From the IMG/VR virus record IMGVR_UViG_2617270938_000003: 14,887 bases of DNA. One strand, given 5' to 3'. This DNA is from a virus (lineage: Duplodnaviria; Heunggongvirae; Uroviricota; Caudoviricetes). The notes below the pieces were generated by a model that was given only the letters and a program-made list of their open reading frames with translations, made no database searches and was not told where the DNA came from. Shown here one piece after another: positions 1,917-14,475 of this stretch (positions are counted from its first letter, which is position 1; every line of letters starts with the position of its first letter). The position numbers and the translations under genes were made by a program.

Positions 1917-2024
1917 AAATCAGCACGTACGAATTCAAACTCTGCCATAAAAGAACATATAAGTAATTTATTAACATATAGATATAGGTTATATTACAAA
2001 TTGAAAAATTATTGGAGAGCAACA

Positions 2025-2891
2025 ATGAATCAAAATCCATTCTCATTCTATGACTTTCTTGGATATTTAATACCAGGTGGTTTTTTTATCCTATTAATGT
2101 ATTTCTGTGGTTTGACATTCGATCTAGATATTGTTATTGACTTAAGTGAATTGCTCAGAGGTCAAAGTCAAATCTTTGGCATTTTGAACTACGCTTCAAT
2201 AGTTATTATATCTTATATAGCTGGACATTTTATTTCTATCACGTCAGCATTTTTTATCGAAAAATACATGAATAAAGAATTAGGATATCCTTCCAAATAT
2301 CTATTTAAAAAATTGATAGATACCTCAGAAAGCATTTGTAGCCCATCCTGCGATGAGAGAAGCGCTGATAAAAAAACAAAAATAAAGAATCGCATAATCA
2401 AATGCGTATTATGTCCAATAATACTATGGGATTTTATAACACAAAAACTATGTTATTCTCAATCTCTACCATTTCATTTAGCTAATACAACATGGTTAAT
2501 GATCAAAGAAGGTTATGAGAAAAAGTTCATAACAAATCGCCAATTATTACAAGATAAAAACGGACTTGATGATGATCTCTTCAGATTGGCATATCATTAT
2601 GTTTATGAGTTTTCAAAACAACATCAAACAAAAATTCAAAACTATGTTGCATTATATGGTTTTTGCAGAAACATATGTTTAATCTTTATAATTTCATTTT
2701 GGGTATCAGTTCCAACCTTTATTTATCGATTATGTACTCATAGTGATTATCTTTATAGTTTACTTTCAATAATGCTTAGCTTTTTCTTCGTCTATGTTTT
2801 CTATGTTGGTTTTGTTAAATTTTATAGAAGATATACTTTAGAAGTATTAATGGCATTTGCTGTACTTCAAAGTAACGACATTATTCGTTAA
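2025..2891 (+). CDS. AT-rich polytopic inner-membrane protein of unknown function (prophage moron candidate)
   Basis: ATG at 2025 with GGAGA 6 nt upstream; the track ORF starts at TTG 2001. About four to five hydrophobic helices (e.g. FFILLMYFCGL, IVIISYIAGHFISITSAFFI, ICLIFIISFWVSVPTFIY, LSIMLSFFFVYVFYVGFV) flank a charged central segment. Codon usage is markedly more AT-rich than the flanking yfdR-like and xis/int genes. Confidence 0.6.
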   Translation: MNQNPFSFYDFLGYLIPGGFFILLMYFCGLTFDLDIVIDLSELLRGQSQIFGILNYASIVIISYIAGHFISITSAFFIEKYMNKELGYPSKYLFKKLIDTSESICSPSCDERSADKKTKIKNRIIKCVLCPIILWDFITQKLCYSQSLPFHLANTTWLMIKEGYEKKFITNRQLLQDKNGLDDDLFRLAYHYVYEFSKQHQTKIQNYVALYGFCRNICLIFIISFWVSVPTFIYRLCTHSDYLYSLLSIMLSFFFVYVFYVGFVKFYRRYTLEVLMAFAVLQSNDIIR

Positions 2892-3139: not shown

Positions 3140-4272
3140 CAATCAGGAAACACCGCCAGGGAGAAACGATCAATATAACTTTCACCTACAAAGGAGTTAG
3201 ATGTCGTGAGCCGCTTTCCAATCTGGAAGTAACACCAAAGAACATTAAATACGCCGAGCGTACACTCGGCGAAATCCATAATAAGATCGAAAGGGGAACA
3301 TTCATTTATGCAGAATATTTTCCCCGTTCTGCTCGTTTGAAAATTTTTGGTAATGCTGCTGCAGGCAAAACGGTAAAGATGTACCTGGACGAATATCTTG
3401 AAATCTGCGAAACAAGAAAACTTTCACCCTCTACGATTGGTGGCTATAAAAAATGCCGTAGTGCGTTAGCCTCACTTCACATTTGCCCTGCAAGTGAATT
3501 AACACCAGCAACCCTGAAAGCGTGGATTCAAAGCCAGAAAACAACCTTAAAAACCATTCGCAACCAGTTATCTTTCCTACGGTCAGCACTTGATGAAGCC
3601 GTGACCGATGGGGTACTTCAAATTAACCCCGTATCGTTAGTAACAGCTTCGCGCTACCAAAGTGATAAGTCAGAAGCAGAAAGCAGCTATGTGGTTGATC
3701 CGCTATCACCAGCAGAAGTTGATGCATTACTAGCAGCAGCCGGAAACAAACAATGGGAAAATCTGTTCCGGTTCGCCATACATACAGGCCTGCGTAGTTC
3801 TGAATTATGTGCCCTACGATGGCATGATATCGACTTTGTTGGAAAAACAGCCCATGTTCAGAGCGCAAGTGTTGTCGGAGTTATCAAAGGAACAAAGACA
3901 AAAGCCGGTACCCGTAAAGTTGAACTGACTGAAGAAGCAATGTTGGCGTTGATAAACCAGAAGCCATTTACATTCATGAAGGATGCTACTGTCTTTGAAG
4001 ATCCAAAGACCAATAAACCCTGGGCAAGTGCTGATGCAATTAGGAAAAAAGCATGGGTGCCAACATTGCGAAAAGCAGGTATTCGTTACAGAAACCCATA
4101 TCAAACCAGGCATACATTCGCCCCCAGCCATATCAGCCGGGGAGCAAACCTGTTTTGGCTTGCGGCTCAAATGGGCCATAAAGGGCCTGAAATGTTATTC
4201 AGGCACTATGGACAATACTTGAAAGAGTATGATGGGAGGGCAAGTATCAAGGATAAAAAGGCTTTATTTTAA
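3100..4272 (+). CDS. Phage tyrosine integrase (site-specific recombinase, lambda-Int superfamily)
   Basis: 390-aa ORF with GAGG 8 nt upstream. C-terminal catalytic signature of tyrosine recombinases is present: TGLRSSEL (box I Arg), HxxR in NPYQTRHTFA, and the nucleophile region GHKGPEMLFRHYGQY. The N-terminus resembles arm-binding domains. Confidence 0.85.
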   Translation: MGQTKLLKLPRGVTIRKHRQGETINITFTYKGVRCREPLSNLEVTPKNIKYAERTLGEIHNKIERGTFIYAEYFPRSARLKIFGNAAAGKTVKMYLDEYLEICETRKLSPSTIGGYKKCRSALASLHICPASELTPATLKAWIQSQKTTLKTIRNQLSFLRSALDEAVTDGVLQINPVSLVTASRYQSDKSEAESSYVVDPLSPAEVDALLAAAGNKQWENLFRFAIHTGLRSSELCALRWHDIDFVGKTAHVQSASVVGVIKGTKTKAGTRKVELTEEAMLALINQKPFTFMKDATVFEDPKTNKPWASADAIRKKAWVPTLRKAGIRYRNPYQTRHTFAPSHISRGANLFWLAAQMGHKGPEMLFRHYGQYLKEYDGRASIKDKKALF

Positions 4273-4881
4273 GTCATTATGCCAATCGTCTACTGTTTGA
4301 AACCAAATTTTTAACCTTTGCATAAAGGTACGATCCTTTTTGGGAGGATGGTACCTTTGAAAAGAAGTATGTAACGCTTCGATAACTCCCATACAAGCAT
4401 CAATTACTTCTTGTGCTTTAACCGGGCGATCGGCATCTGAAAGCTTGTGAGCGACCTCACAATCCAGAGTTGCTTTCTCTAGTACAGATGAGAACACCTC
4501 GTCAGGTATATACAGTCCTCTGCTTTCCAAAATGCAAATCAGTTTGGAAACTTGTTGAGCTTTAGCCAAGATAGTTAACAAGTATGAAACAGAAGCCTTT
4601 GTTCTATCCTTTTGCAACCTTAACAATCGATGCTTTGATGCTCTAATTTTAGGTTGAGTTGTCTGACTGAGCCAATAGTTAGAAGAAATATCAGAAATTT
4701 CAATAACTAACTTTGAAATAGCATCAATAATTGATTTCGATTCAGAACGTGTCGCCAGTTTTACAGAATTATTGTACGCAACTCGCCATCCAATGAAAAC
4801 TAAGCAGACGCTAACTACTGTGATACACCACGAATACTGTCCTATTTGTGCTACTAATGACATTGGTTCCGTACTGATCAA
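4264..4881 (-). CDS. Single-pass membrane protein, third gene of a GHKL-ATPase/STAS-like operon
   Basis: One N-terminal transmembrane helix (YSWCITVVSVCLVFIGW) followed by a soluble domain of about 170 aa. Probable TTG start at 4881 with AAGAGG 6 nt upstream (ATG alternative at 4863). A 10-nt gap separates it from the upstream gene; its 3' end overlaps the integrase stop convergently. Confidence 0.55.
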   Translation of the reverse strand: MISTEPMSLVAQIGQYSWCITVVSVCLVFIGWRVAYNNSVKLATRSESKSIIDAISKLVIEISDISSNYWLSQTTQPKIRASKHRLLRLQKDRTKASVSYLLTILAKAQQVSKLICILESRGLYIPDEVFSSVLEKATLDCEVAHKLSDADRPVKAQEVIDACMGVIEALHTSFQRYHPPKKDRTFMQRLKIWFQTVDDWHNDLK

Positions 4882-4891
4882 CTATCGCCTC

Positions 4892-5218
4892 TTATACTCT
4901 TTCTGGTTGTGCTAAATCAATAAATTTATCAATCTGTTCTTTGTAGAACGGAACATCACTTTTTATAATCAAACGTGCTTTAACGTTGGCTTTAGGTATC
5001 CCTTCCTTACGGATGAGACCTCCAAACGCCTCTTCTAAGAAAGAGGAACCAACACCCAGTGCTATACCGCGAAAATCAACCACAATCTCCTGTTCAGTAC
5101 CCTTCAGCGCAGGCACCAAAAACTCTCTACGAAATCTTTCCGCACTGTGTGGGCTATCCGTTGTGTAACGTCCGAAAGGTGTTCTGGAGAACTCCTTCGC
5201 TATGACGATATTTCTCAT
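4892..5218 (-). CDS. Small STAS-like (anti-sigma-antagonist-like, DUF4325-type) protein
   Basis: 108-aa ORF; ATG at 5218 with AGGAGA 7 nt upstream, lying inside the end of the upstream GHKL gene. The motif VVDFRGIALGVGSSFLEEAFGGL resembles the STAS/DUF4325 core. Fold assignment is from motif resemblance only. Confidence 0.55.
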   Translation of the reverse strand: MRNIVIAKEFSRTPFGRYTTDSPHSAERFRREFLVPALKGTEQEIVVDFRGIALGVGSSFLEEAFGGLIRKEGIPKANVKARLIIKSDVPFYKEQIDKFIDLAQPERV

Positions 5219-5222
5219 AAAA

Positions 5223-6134
5223 TCATCTCCTGGGAACCAGCGACCATTGTAGTAAAGTACCCGGTATGTACTCAGCTAGCTTCTCACATCGAGGACTACT
5301 GTCATTAGAATTATAGCTATAACGAGCCCTTCCTGTTAGTATCAGAAGTGTCTCATTATCCTCACAACCTGCCCCAATAGGTCTCTTGATATCTTCAGAG
5401 CCATTTCCCCGTCCGGAACCAACAAAGCGGGATTCCCCTACTAACATAGCTCTTTCCACAGAAGATACTTCGTTTTGAATGCTATGACCATCACCATTAG
5501 GCACGAAACTTCTATAAATCCCCAATCCAAGGTCACAAACGATAAAAACGACTTTATTTTCATCACGATTGAACCAAGCGCACTGCCACCATCGTTTACC
5601 TTTGAGAAGCTGAATATCTGACTCGAACCCCTCATCTTCATACGCATGATGAGAAACATTGAGCAAAGCTTCACTAATCGCTGTCAGCAGTAAGCCTAAC
5701 TGTTCATTATTAAGCAGAGCACTTTTCTGCAGCATGAGTACTGTTTCAACAATATGCTCGTAAGGTTCGACAGCTGACTGAAAGTATCGTTCCTCCCTCG
5801 TAAGTGCATTCAGTTTCTCTTCTGTGCCAGCAAGCAAAGCACGAGCAAGTCCAGTACCAACGATCCATCTATGCCCAGATGGGTTATCATCCTTTTTAGG
5901 CCATTTAAAACGTATAAAATTAGGGTCCCGGGTTAAAAATTGAGCTCTATTTACTATGGCAAAGAACAGTACCGATGCCGCAGCTGAGGCAAATTTTACC
6001 TTGGACAAATCAACTATAACTCGACCTTTATTTTTTACTCCAATCGATTCAATCGAGTTGATGAAGTTCAATGTCCCAGCCCTAGAATCATCTGAGTAAA
6101 TGCAAAATTTGCTTGGGGGTACCAGTATGGTCAT
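5223..6134 (-). CDS. GHKL-superfamily (HATPase_c) ATPase/kinase-like protein with N-terminal extension
   Basis: 303-aa ORF. All three Bergerat-fold motifs were read directly from the minus strand: N-box EALLNVSHHAY (5640-5672), G1 box DLGLG (5520-5534) and G2 box GSGRGNG (5400-5420). Residues 40-56 (VDLSKVKFASAAASVLF) resemble the STAS phospho-acceptor region. No strong SD at the ATG. Confidence 0.7.
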   Translation of the reverse strand: MTILVPPSKFCIYSDDSRAGTLNFINSIESIGVKNKGRVIVDLSKVKFASAAASVLFFAIVNRAQFLTRDPNFIRFKWPKKDDNPSGHRWIVGTGLARALLAGTEEKLNALTREERYFQSAVEPYEHIVETVLMLQKSALLNNEQLGLLLTAISEALLNVSHHAYEDEGFESDIQLLKGKRWWQCAWFNRDENKVVFIVCDLGLGIYRSFVPNGDGHSIQNEVSSVERAMLVGESRFVGSGRGNGSEDIKRPIGAGCEDNETLLILTGRARYSYNSNDSSPRCEKLAEYIPGTLLQWSLVPRR

Positions 6135-6387: not shown

Positions 6388-6484
6388 CGTCTATTGTAGT
6401 CTAGTGAGAATTGCTGAGAACTACGAGTTATGGCACCCTGAATGGGACCCACGAAGATGGGTCCTAAAATCGAGGGTCCCAAAC

Positions 6485-7714
6485 ATGGCCAAAATCGCTA
6501 AGAAGCTCACTGACACTGAAATCAAAAGCACCAAACCTGCCGAAAAAGAGGTTAACCTTTTTGACGGCGATGGTTTGCTGTTGCGAATCGCTCCCCTGGC
6601 GAAGGGAGGGAAGAAAAATTGGTATTTCAGATATGCAGTGCCTGTGACCAAAAAGCGAACTAAGGTGAGCTTAGGAACCTATCCTCACCTTACACTTGCG
6701 AAGGCACGAGCTTTACGTGATGAATACTTGTCGTTGCTTACAAATGGTATAGACCCCCAAGTTCATAACAACCAAAAAGCCAATGCACTGAAAGATGCCA
6801 CGGAACATACATTTCAAGCAGTAGCCAAGAAGTGGCTTGATGAGAAAGTCAAAACGTCAGGCATCTCCCAAGATCATGCTAACGACATCTGGCGAAGCCT
6901 AGAGAGAAATATCTTTTCCACATTGGGTGATACCCCAATTAAGGAGATTCGCCCTAAAATGCTTAAACAGCATTTAGAACCCATAGAAAAACGAGGTGTC
7001 CTTGAAACACTTCGCCGCATCATATCCCGCCTGAATGAAATTTTCCGCTATGCAGCAACAGAAGAACTCATAGAATTCAACCCGGCAGACAACCTGGGGC
7101 AACGGTTCAGCAAGCCAAAAAAACAGAATATGCCAGCATTACCCCCTTCCGAACTCCCTCGCTTCTTGGTTGCTCTAAACAATGCTTCTATCCGTTTGGA
7201 AACAAGGCTACTGATTGAGTGGCAACTTCTCACATGGGTTCGCCCAGGTGAAGCTGTTCGCACAAGATGGTCAGATATTGATATTGAAACTGGCATGTGG
7301 AACATCCCGGCGGAGTTTATGAAAATGAAGAAGCCTCACAAAGTTCCACTGAGCAAAGAAGCTTTGCGAGTTTTGGATTTAATGAAAGTCATCAGCGGGC
7401 ATAGAGAGTGGGTGTTCCCCAGTATCAAAGCTCCACTCAATCACATGCATGAACAAACAGCTAATGCGGCCATAATCCGTATGGGTTTCGGAGGTGAGCT
7501 TGTAGCTCACGGTATGCGATCCATTGCTAGAACGGCTGCTGAGGAGTCTGGCAAGTTTAGGACTGATGTCTTAGAAGCCGCCCTTGCCCACTCGAAGAAA
7601 GATGAAATAATTGCAGCCTACAATCGTGCAGAGTATCTCACTGAACGGGTGGTTCTCATGCAATGGTGGAGTGACTATGTTTCGTCTCAAAAATGCAAAG
7701 TTATTGCCGCATAA
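6485..7714 (+). CDS. intA: P4-type tyrosine integrase, IntA-like (CP4-57 family), tmRNA-associated
   Basis: From ATG 6485 (GAGGG upstream) the protein MAKIAKKLTDTEIKSTKP...NLFDGDGLLLRIAP...WYFRY...TKKRTKVSLGTYP aligns along its length with E. coli IntA as recalled (LTDTEIK, DGDGL, DIWRSLER, ALETLRR, KKNMP, MQWW). It sits immediately 3' of an ssrA 3'-end sequence as in E. coli. The track ORF starts at GTG 6404. Confidence 0.85.
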   Translation: MAKIAKKLTDTEIKSTKPAEKEVNLFDGDGLLLRIAPLAKGGKKNWYFRYAVPVTKKRTKVSLGTYPHLTLAKARALRDEYLSLLTNGIDPQVHNNQKANALKDATEHTFQAVAKKWLDEKVKTSGISQDHANDIWRSLERNIFSTLGDTPIKEIRPKMLKQHLEPIEKRGVLETLRRIISRLNEIFRYAATEELIEFNPADNLGQRFSKPKKQNMPALPPSELPRFLVALNNASIRLETRLLIEWQLLTWVRPGEAVRTRWSDIDIETGMWNIPAEFMKMKKPHKVPLSKEALRVLDLMKVISGHREWVFPSIKAPLNHMHEQTANAAIIRMGFGGELVAHGMRSIARTAAEESGKFRTDVLEAALAHSKKDEIIAAYNRAEYLTERVVLMQWWSDYVSSQKCKVIAA

Positions 7715-7996: not shown

Positions 7997-9553
7997 ATGG
8001 CTAGCGAAAATGACAAAAATCATAGAGTTAGGGTCGCGCAGTACTTGAGGATGTCTACCGACCATCAGCAATATTCTTTACATAATCAGTCCGAATATAT
8101 CAAAGATTATGCTGAAAAGAACAATATGGAAATCGCTTATACCTACGATGATGCAGGTAAGAGCGGAGTCAGTATCGTAGGCAGGCATTCTTTGCAGCAG
8201 TTACTTAGCGATGTAGAACAAAAGAAAATAGATATACAGGCTGTATTATTTTATGATGTGAGCCGTTTTGGTCGTTTTCAAAATAGTGATGAAGCGGCAT
8301 ATTATTCCTTTCTATTTGAGAGAAATGGTGTAGATCTTATATATTGTTCCGAACCTATACCCACTAAAGATTTCCCTTTAGAGTCCTCTGTTATACTGAA
8401 TATAAAAAGATCTAGTGCTGCATATCACAGCAGGAATTTATCTGAAAAGGTATTTATAGGGCAAGTAAATTTAATAAAGCTTGGTTATCATCAAGGCGGT
8501 ATGGCTGGTTATGGGCTGAGACGTCTTTTAGTAGACGAAAATGGCATAGCTAAAGAAATATTGAGTTTCCGCAAAAGAAAGAGTATTCAAACAGATAGGG
8601 TAATATTAATTCCGGGACCAAAAAATGAAATAAAAATTGTAAATAGAATATATGATCTCTTTATAGATAATAACGTCCCAGAATTCATTATTGCTGAGAG
8701 ATTAAATGAACAGAACATACCTGCAGAAAATGGAACATTATGGACTCGTGCAAAAATACATCAAATTTTGACAAATGAAAAATATATTGGAAACAACATA
8801 TATAACAAAACCTCATCTAAATTAAAAAGTAGGCTTGTAAAAAACCCCAAACATGAATGGGTTAGATGTGACAAGGCATATAAACCTATTATTTCAAAGA
8901 AAAAATACAATAAAGCTCAAGAAATAATTCAGCTCCGATCCATTCATTTGACTAATGAAGATCTATTAGAAAAACTAAAACAAAAATTAGAATCTAATGG
9001 AAAACTATCAGGCTTTATCATTGATGAAGATGATACAGGCCCTTCATCTTCTGTTTATAGAACCCGATTTGGTGGTCTTTTAAGAGCATATACTTTGATT
9101 GGTTATAAGCCAGAACATGATTACAGCTATCTCAAAATAAATGAAGCACTAAGATCATTTCACTCAGAGATAATTGAGGATTTTAAGGGTGAAATTTTAA
9201 AAAGTAACTGTCATATAGACGAGTATAAATATGCCCCAATGCTTTACATCAATGATGAGTTTTTAATTTCCATCCTTGTTACTAAATGCATACATATGAA
9301 ATCAGGTAAACTTAGATGGAAAGTCCGGTTTGATAACTCACAGAAAGCAGACATAACAATTGTTATACGAATGAATTCACAAAATATTTCACCTCTTGAT
9401 TTTTATATCATACCAAAGATTGAAAACGAATATAATAAAATGTGTATGACGGAAACAAACAACATTCGATTAGATCTCTATAGATTTGATAATCTTGATA
9501 AACTTCTACAAATTATTACTCGCATGAAAGTGAGGGAACTATATGCTGCCTGA
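7997..9553 (+). CDS. Large serine recombinase (resolvase/invertase catalytic domain plus recombinase domain)
   Basis: N-terminus RVAQYLRMSTDHQ matches the serine-recombinase active-site motif (YxRxSTxxQ, nucleophile about Ser20, codon near 8054). Resolvase-like block ...DDAGKSGVSIVGRHSLQQLL...VLFYDVSRFGR and recombinase-domain-like block GYHQGGMAGYGLRR...LWTRAKIHQILTNEKYIGN follow. No classical CxxC zinc-ribbon seen in the C-terminal third. GAGG 8 nt upstream of ATG; very AT-rich. Confidence 0.8.
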   Translation: MASENDKNHRVRVAQYLRMSTDHQQYSLHNQSEYIKDYAEKNNMEIAYTYDDAGKSGVSIVGRHSLQQLLSDVEQKKIDIQAVLFYDVSRFGRFQNSDEAAYYSFLFERNGVDLIYCSEPIPTKDFPLESSVILNIKRSSAAYHSRNLSEKVFIGQVNLIKLGYHQGGMAGYGLRRLLVDENGIAKEILSFRKRKSIQTDRVILIPGPKNEIKIVNRIYDLFIDNNVPEFIIAERLNEQNIPAENGTLWTRAKIHQILTNEKYIGNNIYNKTSSKLKSRLVKNPKHEWVRCDKAYKPIISKKKYNKAQEIIQLRSIHLTNEDLLEKLKQKLESNGKLSGFIIDEDDTGPSSSVYRTRFGGLLRAYTLIGYKPEHDYSYLKINEALRSFHSEIIEDFKGEILKSNCHIDEYKYAPMLYINDEFLISILVTKCIHMKSGKLRWKVRFDNSQKADITIVIRMNSQNISPLDFYIIPKIENEYNKMCMTETNNIRLDLYRFDNLDKLLQIITRMKVRELYAA

Positions 9554-10439
9554 AAAAAATGAATTCCCAATAATTCAAATTGAGATTGCAAAAATAAAAT
9601 TTCTTAACCCACGAACAAGAAATAAGTTAGTGCATGAAGAAATAAAGGAAAGCATAAAAAAAAGAGGATTAAGCAAGCCTATAAGCGTAAGAGCTATTGA
9701 TGAAGGCGATTTCAAATATGCTTTAATTTGTGGTCAAGGGAGAATAGAGGCTCTCGTTGCATTAGGTGAAACTATTATTCCAGCAATTATAAGAGATGTA
9801 TCAGAAGAAGATGCTTACGTTATGAGTTTAGTTGAAAACATTGCAAGGAGAAGACCACGTTCTAATGAGTTATTACAGGTGATTAAAGACATGAAAATCA
9901 GAGGACTTTCAGACTCCGAAATAAGTGAGATTACTGGATATTCATCGAACTGGGTGAGCAGTATTAATATGCTACTTGATAAGGGAGAGCATAAACTTCT
10001 CTCAGCAGTCGAACGGGGTAATTTGCCTCTGTATCTCGCAGTGCAATTTGCAAGATGTGAAACTGAGGAAGCACAAGATATTCTTACCGAAGCATATGAT
10101 AAAAAATTAATAAAAAGTCGGGACATTATAAAGATAAAACACATTCTAAATCAAAGAACAGTTGGGAATAAAGGTGCAAAAGCAGCCGGATTTTATTATC
10201 ACAAACCATCAAAAAGGATGACTGCAGAGGAGTTGATTGAGCTTTATGAAAATAGTATCGCTGAACATAAATCTGTTTATAACAACTCAAAATTCATAAA
10301 AACCAACCTACTAATAGTAAATGAGATTTTTAACATCATAATGATGAATAAAAGCTTTCAACATATACTTGAACAAGAGAATCTTTCAGAACTACCATCT
10401 CAGATATTAACCCCAGTAAACAAAGAGGTATTAAAATGA
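9543..10439 (+). CDS. ParB/Srx-fold protein with HTH (ParB-like N-terminal domain), 298 aa
   Basis: Collinear with the chromosomal ParB N-terminal domain: ...NPR..., GQGRIEA at 9732-9752 (ParB GERRxRA-type arginine motif), IPAIIRDVSEEDAYVMSLVENIARR (ParB box ENLQR-like), then an HTH-like LSDSEISEITGYSSNWVSS. Start overlaps the recombinase stop by 11 nt, with GAGGGA 6 nt upstream. Confidence 0.75.
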   Translation: MLPEKNEFPIIQIEIAKIKFLNPRTRNKLVHEEIKESIKKRGLSKPISVRAIDEGDFKYALICGQGRIEALVALGETIIPAIIRDVSEEDAYVMSLVENIARRRPRSNELLQVIKDMKIRGLSDSEISEITGYSSNWVSSINMLLDKGEHKLLSAVERGNLPLYLAVQFARCETEEAQDILTEAYDKKLIKSRDIIKIKHILNQRTVGNKGAKAAGFYYHKPSKRMTAEELIELYENSIAEHKSVYNNSKFIKTNLLIVNEIFNIIMMNKSFQHILEQENLSELPSQILTPVNKEVLK

Positions 10440-11332
10440 TTCAGATACGTTTTGGCGATAATTTTATTTACCTGGAAACTAATAAGTTAATTCCATCTAA
10501 GGAATTATTAGAAAACGTAAAGCGAAGCCATAAATATCATCAAATAGTTACCTCTATCGAAAGCTTAGGTATTATTGAACCAATAATAGTATTCTATGAC
10601 AAAGATAAAGATGTCACTAAGATACTTGATGGCCATTTAAGGGTTGAGGCTTTAAAAGACTTAGGTATAGAAAAAGCTCCATGTATACTTTCGAGCATAG
10701 ATGATGCTTTCACTCCTAACAAACAAGTGAATCATATAAATGTAGTTGAAGAACATAGAATGATAATTAAGTCTCTGGCAAAAGTATCAATTGAAAAACT
10801 TAGTGCTGCTTTGGGCATATCTGTTGATGCCATAAAAGATAAAGCGAATGTGATGAACGGCATAGATCCAAGTGTAATTGCGAAACTTTCTGATAAACCT
10901 ATACCTAAGGCTACATTTGACGTTTTGAGGAAAATGAAGCCAATTCGCCAAATTGAAGCAGTCGGTACAATGATTAATTTTGATAATTATAGTAAAAAAT
11001 TTGCAATGAGCATCTTGGATGCAACACCGGCATCGATGATAGTAAATAAAGGGAAAAACACTCCCTATAAAAAGGATATAAAAAAAACCATACTTCGTCT
11101 GGAACAAGAAATGGCAACAACTTCGGAAGAAACGAAAAAGCTTCAAACCGAGTATGGTTCAGATATGTTGAAATTCGTTATAATCCAGTCATATATTAAT
11201 AAATTACTTGGCAATTCTAAAGTTCTTCATTGGTTCTTAGAAAACGAGGTTGATTATCTTAATGAGTTAAAAAGAATTTCTAGAATAAATTCTTTGGATG
11301 ATAAGACTCTTACTGAAAACAGCAAGTCATAG
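10436..11332 (+). CDS. Second ParB/Srx-fold protein, divergent paralogue-like, 298 aa
   Basis: N-terminal segment IIEPIIVFYDKDKDVTKILDGHLRVEALKDLGIEKAPCIL (DGHLRVEA at 10628-10651) has the ParB/Srx arrangement of a beta-strand, Gly/Arg motif and hydrophobic helix. ATGA start/stop overlap with the upstream gene, AGAGG SD. Same length as its neighbour. Confidence 0.6.
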   Translation: MIQIRFGDNFIYLETNKLIPSKELLENVKRSHKYHQIVTSIESLGIIEPIIVFYDKDKDVTKILDGHLRVEALKDLGIEKAPCILSSIDDAFTPNKQVNHINVVEEHRMIIKSLAKVSIEKLSAALGISVDAIKDKANVMNGIDPSVIAKLSDKPIPKATFDVLRKMKPIRQIEAVGTMINFDNYSKKFAMSILDATPASMIVNKGKNTPYKKDIKKTILRLEQEMATTSEETKKLQTEYGSDMLKFVIIQSYINKLLGNSKVLHWFLENEVDYLNELKRISRINSLDDKTLTENSKS

Positions 11333-12927: not shown

Positions 12928-14475
12928 ATGGCCAGAAAACCTAAAGAAATCAAAACAGACCCGTTAGAGGTCATCCTGTGGAAAGCGGCTGACAAGCTAC
13001 GTAAGAACATTGATGCAGCCGAGTACAAGCATGTCGTGCTGGGCCTGATTTTCCTTAAGTATATTTCTGATTCTTTTGAATCTCATTATGAGTTGCTGAA
13101 GGCTGGTGAAGGCGAGTTCGCAGGCGCTGACCCGGAAGATAGAGACGAGTACACCGCTTACAACATTTTCTTTGTCCCTGAGCTTGCACGCTGGAACTAT
13201 CTAATATCTAAGGCAAAGCTACCCGAAATCGGTAAGCTGGTTGATGATGCTATGGAGCTTATCGAAGCGGGTAACCCACAGCTAAAAGGTGCGCTGCCGA
13301 AAGTCTACGCTCGCCAGAACCTCGACGCAACTGTGCTGGGTGAACTGATAGATCTGATTGGCAACATTGCACTGGGAGATGCCAAAGCGCGTTCTGCTGA
13401 TGTATTAGGCCACGTATTCGAATACTTCCTTGGTGAATTTGCACTGGCAGAAGGCAAACAGGGCGGTCAGTTCTATACGCCAAAATCCATCGTAAGCCTG
13501 CTGGTTAACATGCTGGAACCCTATAAAGGCCGAGTCTTTGACCCTTGCTGCGGTTCCGGTGGTATGTTCGTTCAGTCAGAAAAATTTGTTGAAGCGCATC
13601 AGGGAAATATTGACGATATTTCGATTTACGGTCAGGAATCCAACCAGACCACCTGGCGTCTGGCAAAAATGAACCTGGCTATCCGGGGTATCAATTCAGA
13701 ACACGTCCGCTGGAACAGTGAAGGCTCATTCCTTAACGATGCCCACAAAGATCTAAAATCTGATTTTATCATTGCCAATCCACCGTTTAACGTGTCTGAC
13801 TGGTCCGGTGAGCAGCTTCGTGGCGATGCCCGTTGGCAATACGGTATCCCACCTACCGGGAATGCTAACTTTGCCTGGATGCAGCATTTTCTGTATCACC
13901 TGTCGCCAAAAGGTCAGGCTGGTGTTGTACTGGCAAAAGGGGCTTTAACATCTAAAAGTTCTGGTGAAGGTGATATCCGTGCCGCACTGGTAAAAGATGC
14001 CAATGTGATTGACTGTATCGTAAATTTACCTGCAAAACTGTTCCTGAACACCCAGATCCCTGCGGCGTTATGGTTTATGCGTCGTGATCGTGAAAATAGC
14101 AGCCAATATCGTGATCGCAGTAAAGAAATTCTGTTTATTGATGCCCGGAATTTAGGCCATTTAATTAATCGTCGAACCAAAGTCCTGTCTGACTACGATA
14201 TTAAAACCATAGCCGATACCTACCATAACTGGCGTAACAAAGGTGGCGACTACGAAGACGTCGCTGGTTTCTGTGCGTCAGTAGACATTGCTGAAGTTGC
14301 TAAACTCGATTATGTGCTGACACCTGGCCGTTATGTTGGTCTTGCTGATGAAGAAGACGATTTCGACTTTAAAGAACGCTTTACGGCTCTTAAAGCTGAG
14401 TTTGAAGCGCAACTGGAAGAAGAGGCGCGTCTGAACAGAGCCATCGTTGATAATCTGGCGAAGGTGGTTTTATGA
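12928..14475 (+). CDS. hsdM: Type I restriction-modification system DNA methyltransferase subunit HsdM
   Basis: 515-aa ORF with the N6-adenine methyltransferase motifs: AdoMet-binding motif [13 protein letters not shown] and catalytic motif IV NPPF ([12 protein letters not shown]). Typical HsdM N-terminal helical region and acidic coiled C-terminus; stop overlaps the next gene's ATG (ATGA). Confidence 0.9.

Follow-up and report, generated by a model that had tools for sequence, protein, structure and literature searches.

Three tightly packed open reading frames lie on the minus strand at positions 4264-6134 of IMG/VR virus record IMGVR_UViG_2617270938_000003, a Caudoviricetes sequence of 14,887 nucleotides that we call the window. 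We refer to their products as K (303 residues), S (108 residues) and M (205 residues); the features of the locus are collected in Table 1. A prediction made from the DNA letters alone had drawn attention to the interval 5745-6134, which encodes residues 1-130 of K. It held that this region carries a STAS-like phospho-acceptor motif, that K may be a STAS-like domain fused to a GHKL kinase and encoded next to a second, free-standing STAS-like protein, and that a kinase with one substrate-like domain in cis and another in trans would have an unusual architecture. Our analysis supports the fusion and its place beside a free-standing STAS-like (DUF4325) protein. The acceptor role of the motif fares less well. 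We favour a reading in which K would be a kinase with a built-in STAS sensor, S its substrate and M a membrane effector released when S is phosphorylated.

Table 1. Features of the K-S-M locus and its flank (positions are those of the window; residues of K are numbered in full, with Met = 1)
Feature	Position	Strand	Remarks
K gene	5223-6134	minus	303-residue open reading frame; RefSeq WP_000154254.1 'hypothetical protein'; phrog_3364 (PHROG E 8.5e-67)
K N-terminal STAS-like domain	5769-6134	minus	residues 1-122; β, β, α1, β3, α2, β4, α3, short α, α4, β5
Motif VDLSKVKFASAAASVLF	5964-6014	minus	K residues 41-57; end of β3, β3-α2 loop and first two turns of α2
K GHKL (Bergerat-fold) kinase domain, SpoIIAB/RsbW type	5226-5768	minus	residues 123-303
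S gene	4892-5218	minus	108 residues; start codon 4 nucleotides past the K stop; Pfam DUF4325 'STAS-like', E 6.2e-14
Ser58-Ser59 codons of S, predicted phospho-acceptor	5042-5047	minus	motif G57-S58-S59-F60-L61-E62-E63
M gene	4264-4881	minus	205 residues from TTG; predicted effector, same operon place as VapC in VapKSC
Second tyrosine integrase	6404-7714		

K has 163 close homologues, and among 1.8 billion proteins its relatives form 558 cluster representatives at E<=1e-3. Nearly all of these representatives match K over residues 3-298, so the two-domain build is an ancestral trait of the family. The AlphaFold2 model of K, built from an input alignment of 35 sequences, is confident, with a predicted local distance difference test score (pLDDT) of 89.9 and a predicted template modelling score (pTM) of 0.89. 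In this model the part of K after residue 122 is an α/β sandwich with a long β-hairpin at its end, and only two residues separate the last strand of the STAS-like part (118-121) from the first GHKL helix. Conservation in K is counted throughout over 238 homologues that reach down to about 25% identity.

The C-terminal half has the Bergerat fold with its three nucleotide-binding motifs: the N-box (E-x-x-x-N) at E155/N159/H163, the G1 box (D-x-G-x-G) at D201-x-G203-x-G205 and the G2 glycine motif at R242-G243-x-G245. E155, N159, H163, D201, G203, G243 and G245 are invariant in all 238 homologues. Because the structures nearest to this half are SpoIIAB (score 12.4), RsbW (12.0), the kinase domain of Rv1364c (11.7), UsfX (10.6) and SiaB (9.4), the model identifies it specifically as an anti-sigma-type Ser/Thr kinase. 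Curated sequence profiles score it below their thresholds. Pfam HATPase_c_2 gives 22.9 bits, under the gathering cut-off of 27.4, and NCBIfam RsbW gives 11.7 bits against a cut-off of 145. A sequence search of the PDB with full-length and N-domain profiles of K returned only RsbW at E 0.62, plus the irrelevant Afp16. Where the kinase domain has its first strand, R181-W182-W183 (5583-5591, minus strand) are kept in 207, 234 and 236 of the homologues, respectively; the triplet is a candidate ligand-sensing or interdomain element particular to the K family.

For the N-terminal domain the support is moderate, not overwhelming. As the original prediction had anticipated for this region, AlphaFold2 places a STAS-like α/β domain at about residues 1-122; its elements agree with the STAS order β1-β2-α1-β3-α2-β4-α3-(β5)-α4, and its nearest structural neighbours are STAS domains. 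A second hallmark of the fold can be read from the sequences in helix α3, where P85...G95-L96 of K are spaced as P85...G95-L96 of SpoIIAA (whose sequence we checked against PDB 1auz). A Foldseek search of the PDB with the N-domain gave no match at E<=0.001, the top match being RsbS at E 0.11 with a TM-score below 0.5. When 33 K homologues were compared with Pfam, only sub-threshold matches were obtained, to STAS_2 in eight, STAS in five and DUF4325 in two, with best E values of 0.005-0.02.

Two systems that combine these elements have recently been described. CapK is a kinase with helix-turn-helix (HTH), STAS and GHKL domains, and CapS is a STAS-winged HTH (wHTH) repressor (Chambers et al., EMBO J 2026; PMC13373217). 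When single-stranded DNA (ssDNA) is present, CapK phosphorylates Ser54 of CapS; in the AlphaFold 3 model, CapK's own STAS domain and its GHKL domain form the groove that takes up the ssDNA, and the substitution W68A abolishes activation (PMC13373217). The second system, VapKSC of Escherichia sp. E4736, has three parts: VapK, a STAS-GHKL kinase that lacks an HTH; VapS, a STAS domain with a short tail; and VapC, a PIN toxin (PMC13373217). VapS neutralises VapC, and S48E in VapS abolishes their binding; protection against phage Bas42 is lost with VapS S48A, VapK F54A or VapC D28A, and VapKSC is an experimentally shown anti-phage toxin-antitoxin system (PMC13373217). The kinase-STAS pair was shown only in 2026 to switch on, after DNA damage, immune operons in the case of CapKS and a PIN toxin in the case of VapKSC (PMC13373217).

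K is detectably related to both kinases. Using the VapK, VapS and CapK sequences from the supplement of that paper (PMC13373217), we found that VapK is matched with 51.4 bits by a profile built on the 238 homologues of K, over profile positions 41-299, which takes in both domains, and the corresponding hhalign comparison has an E of 8.4e-5. The β3-α2 region is in register, the K profile reading 'lidlskvkeitaaAallLfA' where VapK reads 'TFIFTHCRFLRPNAVAFLGG'. The motif VDLSKVKFASAAASVLF itself aligns with 'FIFTHCRFLRPNAVAFL' of VapK, the segment that holds F54, and F54 falls over Phe48 of K. Against CapK of E. roggenkampii the same profile scores 23.7 bits over the stretch between α2 and the G2 box. 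K joins a STAS-like domain and a GHKL kinase in one chain with detectable homology to VapK and CapK, and its architecture is therefore the CapK/VapK architecture. Because STAS-GHKL kinases with a separate STAS substrate have now been published in the form of CapK and VapK (PMC13373217), that architecture can no longer be called unusual, as the original prediction had it.

The resemblance extends to the partner. S carries no Pfam domain besides DUF4325, and VapS itself is a DUF4325 protein (E 2.7e-17). An hhalign comparison of the S profile with VapS (E 1.3e-5, probability 80%) lays Ser58 of S over Ser48 of VapS. Among 114 members of the S family, S58 is kept in 111, and S59, F60 and E63 are kept in all. 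By analogy with VapS, then, S is probably the substrate of the kinase and its antitoxin-like partner.

Two further observations concern S. Its match to phrog_5816 covers only positions 341-439 of a profile of 441 positions, and therefore long phage or prophage proteins with a C-terminal DUF4325 domain also exist. A 280-residue Logan assembly protein, P0084, at first sight offers a natural fusion of K to a DUF4325 domain. We rejected it: a frameshift near the C-terminus of K ('YIPELYYSGRWFPGDDF') reads into S, and the product is an artefact or a pseudogene.

How constant is the company that K keeps? We inspected eight loci: the window, the Salmonella/E. coli locus P0046, Photobacterium, Rheinheimera, NCBI assembly GCA_011378805.1 and three metagenome contigs. 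At all eight the K gene is directly followed by the gene of a DUF4325 (STAS-like) protein, and this in turn by a gene for 143-209 residues without a known domain, over a range of K identity from 100% to about 27%. The genes lie close together or overlap, and the flanks differ. The third gene is not a VapC-like PIN nuclease. Nor does the window have the CapKS arrangement, in which the kinase bears an N-terminal HTH, the STAS protein bears a wHTH and an immune operon lies downstream: K begins directly with its STAS-like domain. The operon ranges over Enterobacterales, Vibrionaceae and Rheinheimera. In E. coli it is patchy, with at least 80% coverage in at least 126 of 5426 complete genomes, where no gene of the operon has an annotation beyond 'hypothetical' or 'STAS-like'. 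The window itself is E. coli chromosomal DNA, with 100% identity to NZ_CP019267 over 2.2 kb. K, S and M each fall in a PHROG family of unknown function (phrog_3364, phrog_5816 and phrog_30059, respectively).

The third protein, M, is predicted from its sequence to be a single-pass membrane protein and the effector of the module. Its start is ambiguous. The TTG at 4881 has a GAGG 7 nucleotides upstream and yields the 205-residue form that matches phrog_30059 end to end (E 4e-145); RefSeq begins at an ATG at 4863, 18 nucleotides further in, for 199 residues. Homologues have 199, 205 or 219 residues. A single hydrophobic segment lies near the N-terminus at about residues 13-36 (Kyte-Doolittle maximum 1.81 at 17-35), followed directly by the motif IGW..Y.N..KLATR.E, and the C-terminal part holds SFQ..Y.P. 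The hydrophobic segment, the IGW motif and SFQ..Y.P recur in the aligned third-gene products of seven of the eight loci. M matched nothing in Pfam, NCBIfam or PADLOC, and there is no PIN protein among the seven aligned products; M belongs to a separate family, conserved in its own right. Its evolution is much faster than that of K or S, for beyond a single homologue with 90% identity the next has 53%.

These observations suggest how the module could work. K would be an active Ser/Thr kinase of the SpoIIAB/RsbW GHKL type. Its STAS-like domain would serve regulation or sensing as a module fixed rigidly to the kinase domain, and the two together would form a signal-binding site, as has been modelled for ssDNA in CapK. 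Activation would lead K to phosphorylate S where helix α2 of S begins, at Ser58 or Ser59. As long as S is unphosphorylated, it most likely keeps M bound and neutralised; phosphorylation of S would then release M to cause membrane damage or growth arrest, following a toxin-antitoxin or abortive-infection logic. By analogy with CapKS and VapKSC, from which we infer the phosphorylation of S, the binding of S to M, the toxicity of M and the nature of the trigger, K-S-M is probably a toxin-antitoxin or defence module that phosphorylation sets off. The analysis itself shows the folds, the invariance of the catalytic residues, the homology to VapK and VapS, the conserved operon and the want of an invariant Ser/Thr in the cis domain. 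We assign a probability of about 0.62 to this explanation taken whole, including its two components that K-S-M is one operon of the CapK-CapS/VapK-VapS-VapC kind and that the motif in K is no phospho-acceptor.

What, then, does the motif do? The original prediction put it at residues 40-56; it occupies residues 41-57, the difference of one arising because the Met was left uncounted, and translation of the DNA gives it as predicted. The Ser/Ala-rich segment is conserved among the homologues, though none of its Ser or Thr residues is invariant. Its consensus is D-[LF]-S-x-V-x-x-[AIV]-[ST]-A-A-A-[SA]-x-L-[LF]-F-A, with D42 in 206 of the 238, S or T at position 50 in 200, A51 in 197, A53 in 207, F58 in 188 and A59 in 203; at position 54, S, A and T all occur. 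The residue at position 50 breaks down into 111 Ser, 89 Thr, 11 Gly and one each of Asp and Asn, with others scattered. The observed likeness to the SpoIIAA/RsbV-type STAS segment holds: an ungapped alignment (VIVDLSKVKFASAAASVLFF against IVLNLEDLSFMDSSGLGVIL) keeps the hydrophobic pattern, but the similarity in sequence alone is not significant.

That alignment sets the phospho-acceptor Ser58 of SpoIIAA over Ala51 of K, and a single gap would set it over Ser50. In the AlphaFold2 model Ser50 stands directly ahead of helix α2, whose first residue is 51, so the register has an uncertainty of one residue: Ala51 is the choice of the ungapped alignment, Ser50 that of the N-cap argument and of the 'FAS' of VapS. 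Ser, Thr and Gly are classical helix N-cap residues, and Asp and Asn are too. On the explanation we prefer, the conserved S/T-A-A-A...F-A segment would be the N-cap and first turns of α2, with a structural or ligand-facing role. An absolutely conserved Ser or Thr at the N-terminus of α2 marks the STAS domains of anti-sigma-factor antagonists; S has it and the N-terminal domain of K lacks it.

If Ala51 is the true counterpart of the acceptor, its conservation could mean that the cis domain is a pseudo-substrate: with Ala at the acceptor site, it would fill the STAS-docking surface of the kinase and keep it inactive until a signal, or S, displaces it. The cis domain and the substrate belong to the same fold class, and the pTM of 0.89 implies a fixed packing between the two domains of K. 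The published AlphaFold 3 models of CapK-CapS and VapK-VapS, however, have the substrate STAS at the active site and the kinase's own STAS elsewhere, lining the ssDNA groove (PMC13373217). The gap of two residues between the STAS and GHKL parts of K also favours a rigid body over a swinging pseudo-substrate. We regard such autoinhibition as unlikely.

If instead Ser50 is the counterpart, the cis domain might be phosphorylated there, in cis or across a dimer, and K and S together would make a two-substrate switch with the second STAS domain in trans. This is the acceptor role that the original prediction had in mind. A Ser or Thr does sit just ahead of α2, within one residue of the SpoIIAA Ser58, CapS Ser54 and VapS Ser48 sites; F-A-S of K matches F46-A47-S48 of VapS locally; and a hydroxyl residue occupies the position in most homologues, with Asp and Asn nearly absent. 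Several findings speak against it. Gly occupies position 50 in 11 sequences, including the P0046 clade, and other residues in about 27 more. No clade is more abundant than the Gly50 clade of P0046 and its relatives, which has 404 contigs in Salmonella/E. coli and has lost neither any of the kinase motifs nor any of the three genes of the operon. In the ungapped register the acceptor falls on Ala51, VapK has Arg-Pro at the corresponding positions, and the Ser-Ser of the trans partner S is essentially invariant. In the characterised relatives the trans STAS protein is the sole substrate (PMC13373217). We do not uphold the view of the motif as a phospho-acceptor and of K as its own substrate, which we consider improbable.

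The explanation we prefer, of K as kinase and sensor, S as substrate and M as effector, also has evidence weighing against it. None of the curated Pfam models STAS, STAS_2 and DUF4325 matches the K of the window. An hhalign comparison of the N-domain profile with three SpoIIAA sequences gave a non-significant E of 0.62, and the comparison with the DUF4325 profile of its partner gave an E of 0.0017 at a probability of 15.6%, with only α1-β3 aligned. Position 50 is Ser or Thr in 84% of homologues and almost never Asp or Asn, a preference for hydroxyl groups that goes beyond what a mere N-cap would require. The column aligned with VapK F54, position 48 of K, is aromatic in only 119 of 238 homologues; the hairpin that holds K237/K239, linked to ssDNA in CapK, is not well conserved in the K family according to the alignments; and the near-invariant R-W-W is the family's own, missing from VapK and CapK in the alignment comparison. 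PADLOC recognised none of K, S and M, and a tblastn search with K against 50,697 phage records found nothing.

Two of these points have a bearing of their own. Neither profile comparison is strong enough to establish that the N-domain is homologous to SpoIIAA or to DUF4325, and we set both aside; DUF4325 likewise fails against the three-sequence SpoIIAA profile, which is therefore too narrow. And because the positions linked to ssDNA in CapK and VapK are poorly conserved in the K family, the activating signal of K may differ from ssDNA.

The silence of PADLOC would also suit an ordinary partner-switching regulator of transcription or housekeeping, in which K is an anti-sigma-like binder, S its antagonist and the third gene unrelated cargo, with no role in defence or as a toxin-antitoxin. 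The nearest solved structures, those of the anti-sigma kinases SpoIIAB and RsbW and of their antagonists, point the same way. Yet none of the eight loci has a sigma factor or PP2C phosphatase gene in or beside the operon, and the third gene stays with K and S even where identity has fallen to about 27%, its motifs being kept at seven of the eight. The mobile, prophage-linked contexts and the patchy spread in E. coli fit such a role poorly, and the homologous VapKSC is a demonstrated anti-phage toxin-antitoxin operon (PMC13373217). We think a regulator of this kind a poor prospect. Least probable of all, in our estimate, is the composite proposal that the undescribed membrane effector is a third type of CapK/VapK output and, at the same time, the N-cap Ser/Thr of K a regulatory autophosphorylation site for feedback or desensitisation, the kinase reading both the cis and the trans STAS domain.

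The surroundings of K-S-M are those of a mobile element. The operon sits at the end of a CPS-53-like prophage, between the prophage integrase (with yfdP/Q/R upstream) and a second integrase, and the gene after M is a convergent integrase. Its GC content is 0.44. Just past the second integrase, 7997-11332 on the plus strand encodes a 518-residue serine recombinase (Resolvase plus Recombinase) and then two overlapping 298-residue ParB_N/RepB-like genes; with a GC content of about 0.30-0.35 against 0.44 in K-S-M, this region looks like a separate integrative element stacked on the prophage end. About 7 kb from K-S-M, at 12928-14475 on the plus strand, lies the type I restriction-modification methyltransferase HsdM (N6_Mtase E 1e-106; PADLOC MTase_I E 3e-188), a sign that the setting may be a defence island. 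The reference strain 13C1079T, identical in other respects, has an IS3 element annotated in the stretch matching the HsdM region. Just upstream of the prophage integrase, a 296-residue open reading frame (2001-2891, plus strand) with a GC content of about 0.30 has no Pfam domain, and in PADLOC it resembles Csx27 only weakly (E 1.4e-5). It may be a prophage moron or a membrane protein.

In K-S-M a known signalling pair appears to drive another output, namely a small membrane protein that is itself conserved. What the alignments suggest is new is this coupling, in which a CapK/VapK-type kinase-STAS pair is joined to a small membrane protein instead of a nuclease toxin; the pair itself was already known. 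If confirmed, the module would extend the modularity of the kinase-STAS sensor pair, and phrog_3364, phrog_5816 and phrog_30059 would gain a name, along with a mechanism that experiments can test. It would also offer a natural comparison for what the built-in STAS domain of the kinase senses, with the ssDNA-linked residues not kept and the R-W-W kept. No new kind of switching architecture is revealed; a very recent discovery is extended and nothing is overturned.

How does the module compare with other GHKL-STAS systems? SiaB and SiaC of Pseudomonas aeruginosa are separate proteins that regulate a diguanylate cyclase, and their operon has no membrane effector. The SpoIIAB-SpoIIAA and RsbW-RsbV pairs of Bacillus differ from K in that their kinase is a single domain of about 140 residues that also sequesters a sigma factor, and their STAS protein is only ever separate, never fused to the kinase; the K locus has neither sigma factor nor PP2C phosphatase. 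In Rv1364c of Mycobacterium tuberculosis, RsbU-RsbW-RsbV-like domains do share one chain. There the STAS domain is C-terminal and accompanied by PAS and PP2C phosphatase domains, whereas the STAS-like domain of K is N-terminal and has no invariant acceptor. The STAS domain of Rv1364c is reportedly a phosphorylatable substrate.

CapK-CapS is closer. Here too a STAS-GHKL kinase is followed by a STAS substrate, and the kinase's own STAS domain is not a substrate. The N-terminal HTH of CapK is missing from K, and a Pfam scan of ten longer K homologues (340-390 residues) for a CapK-like HTH found none. CapS is, moreover, a wHTH repressor of a downstream immune operon, whereas S has no DNA-binding domain and only M lies downstream.

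VapKSC is the nearest parallel. It differs in its third gene, which in K-S-M encodes a single-pass membrane protein without a PIN domain; in the distance between the kinases, K and VapK being roughly 20% identical, with Arg-Pro in VapK where the K family has S/T-Ala; and in the invariant GSSFLEEAFGGLIR block of S, which VapS does not share. The two systems nonetheless have the same order of three genes, namely a STAS-GHKL kinase without an HTH, a DUF4325/STAS protein of about 110 residues with a Ser at the start of α2, and an effector. The acceptor serines of S and VapS align, and both systems are found in mobile or defence-island contexts.

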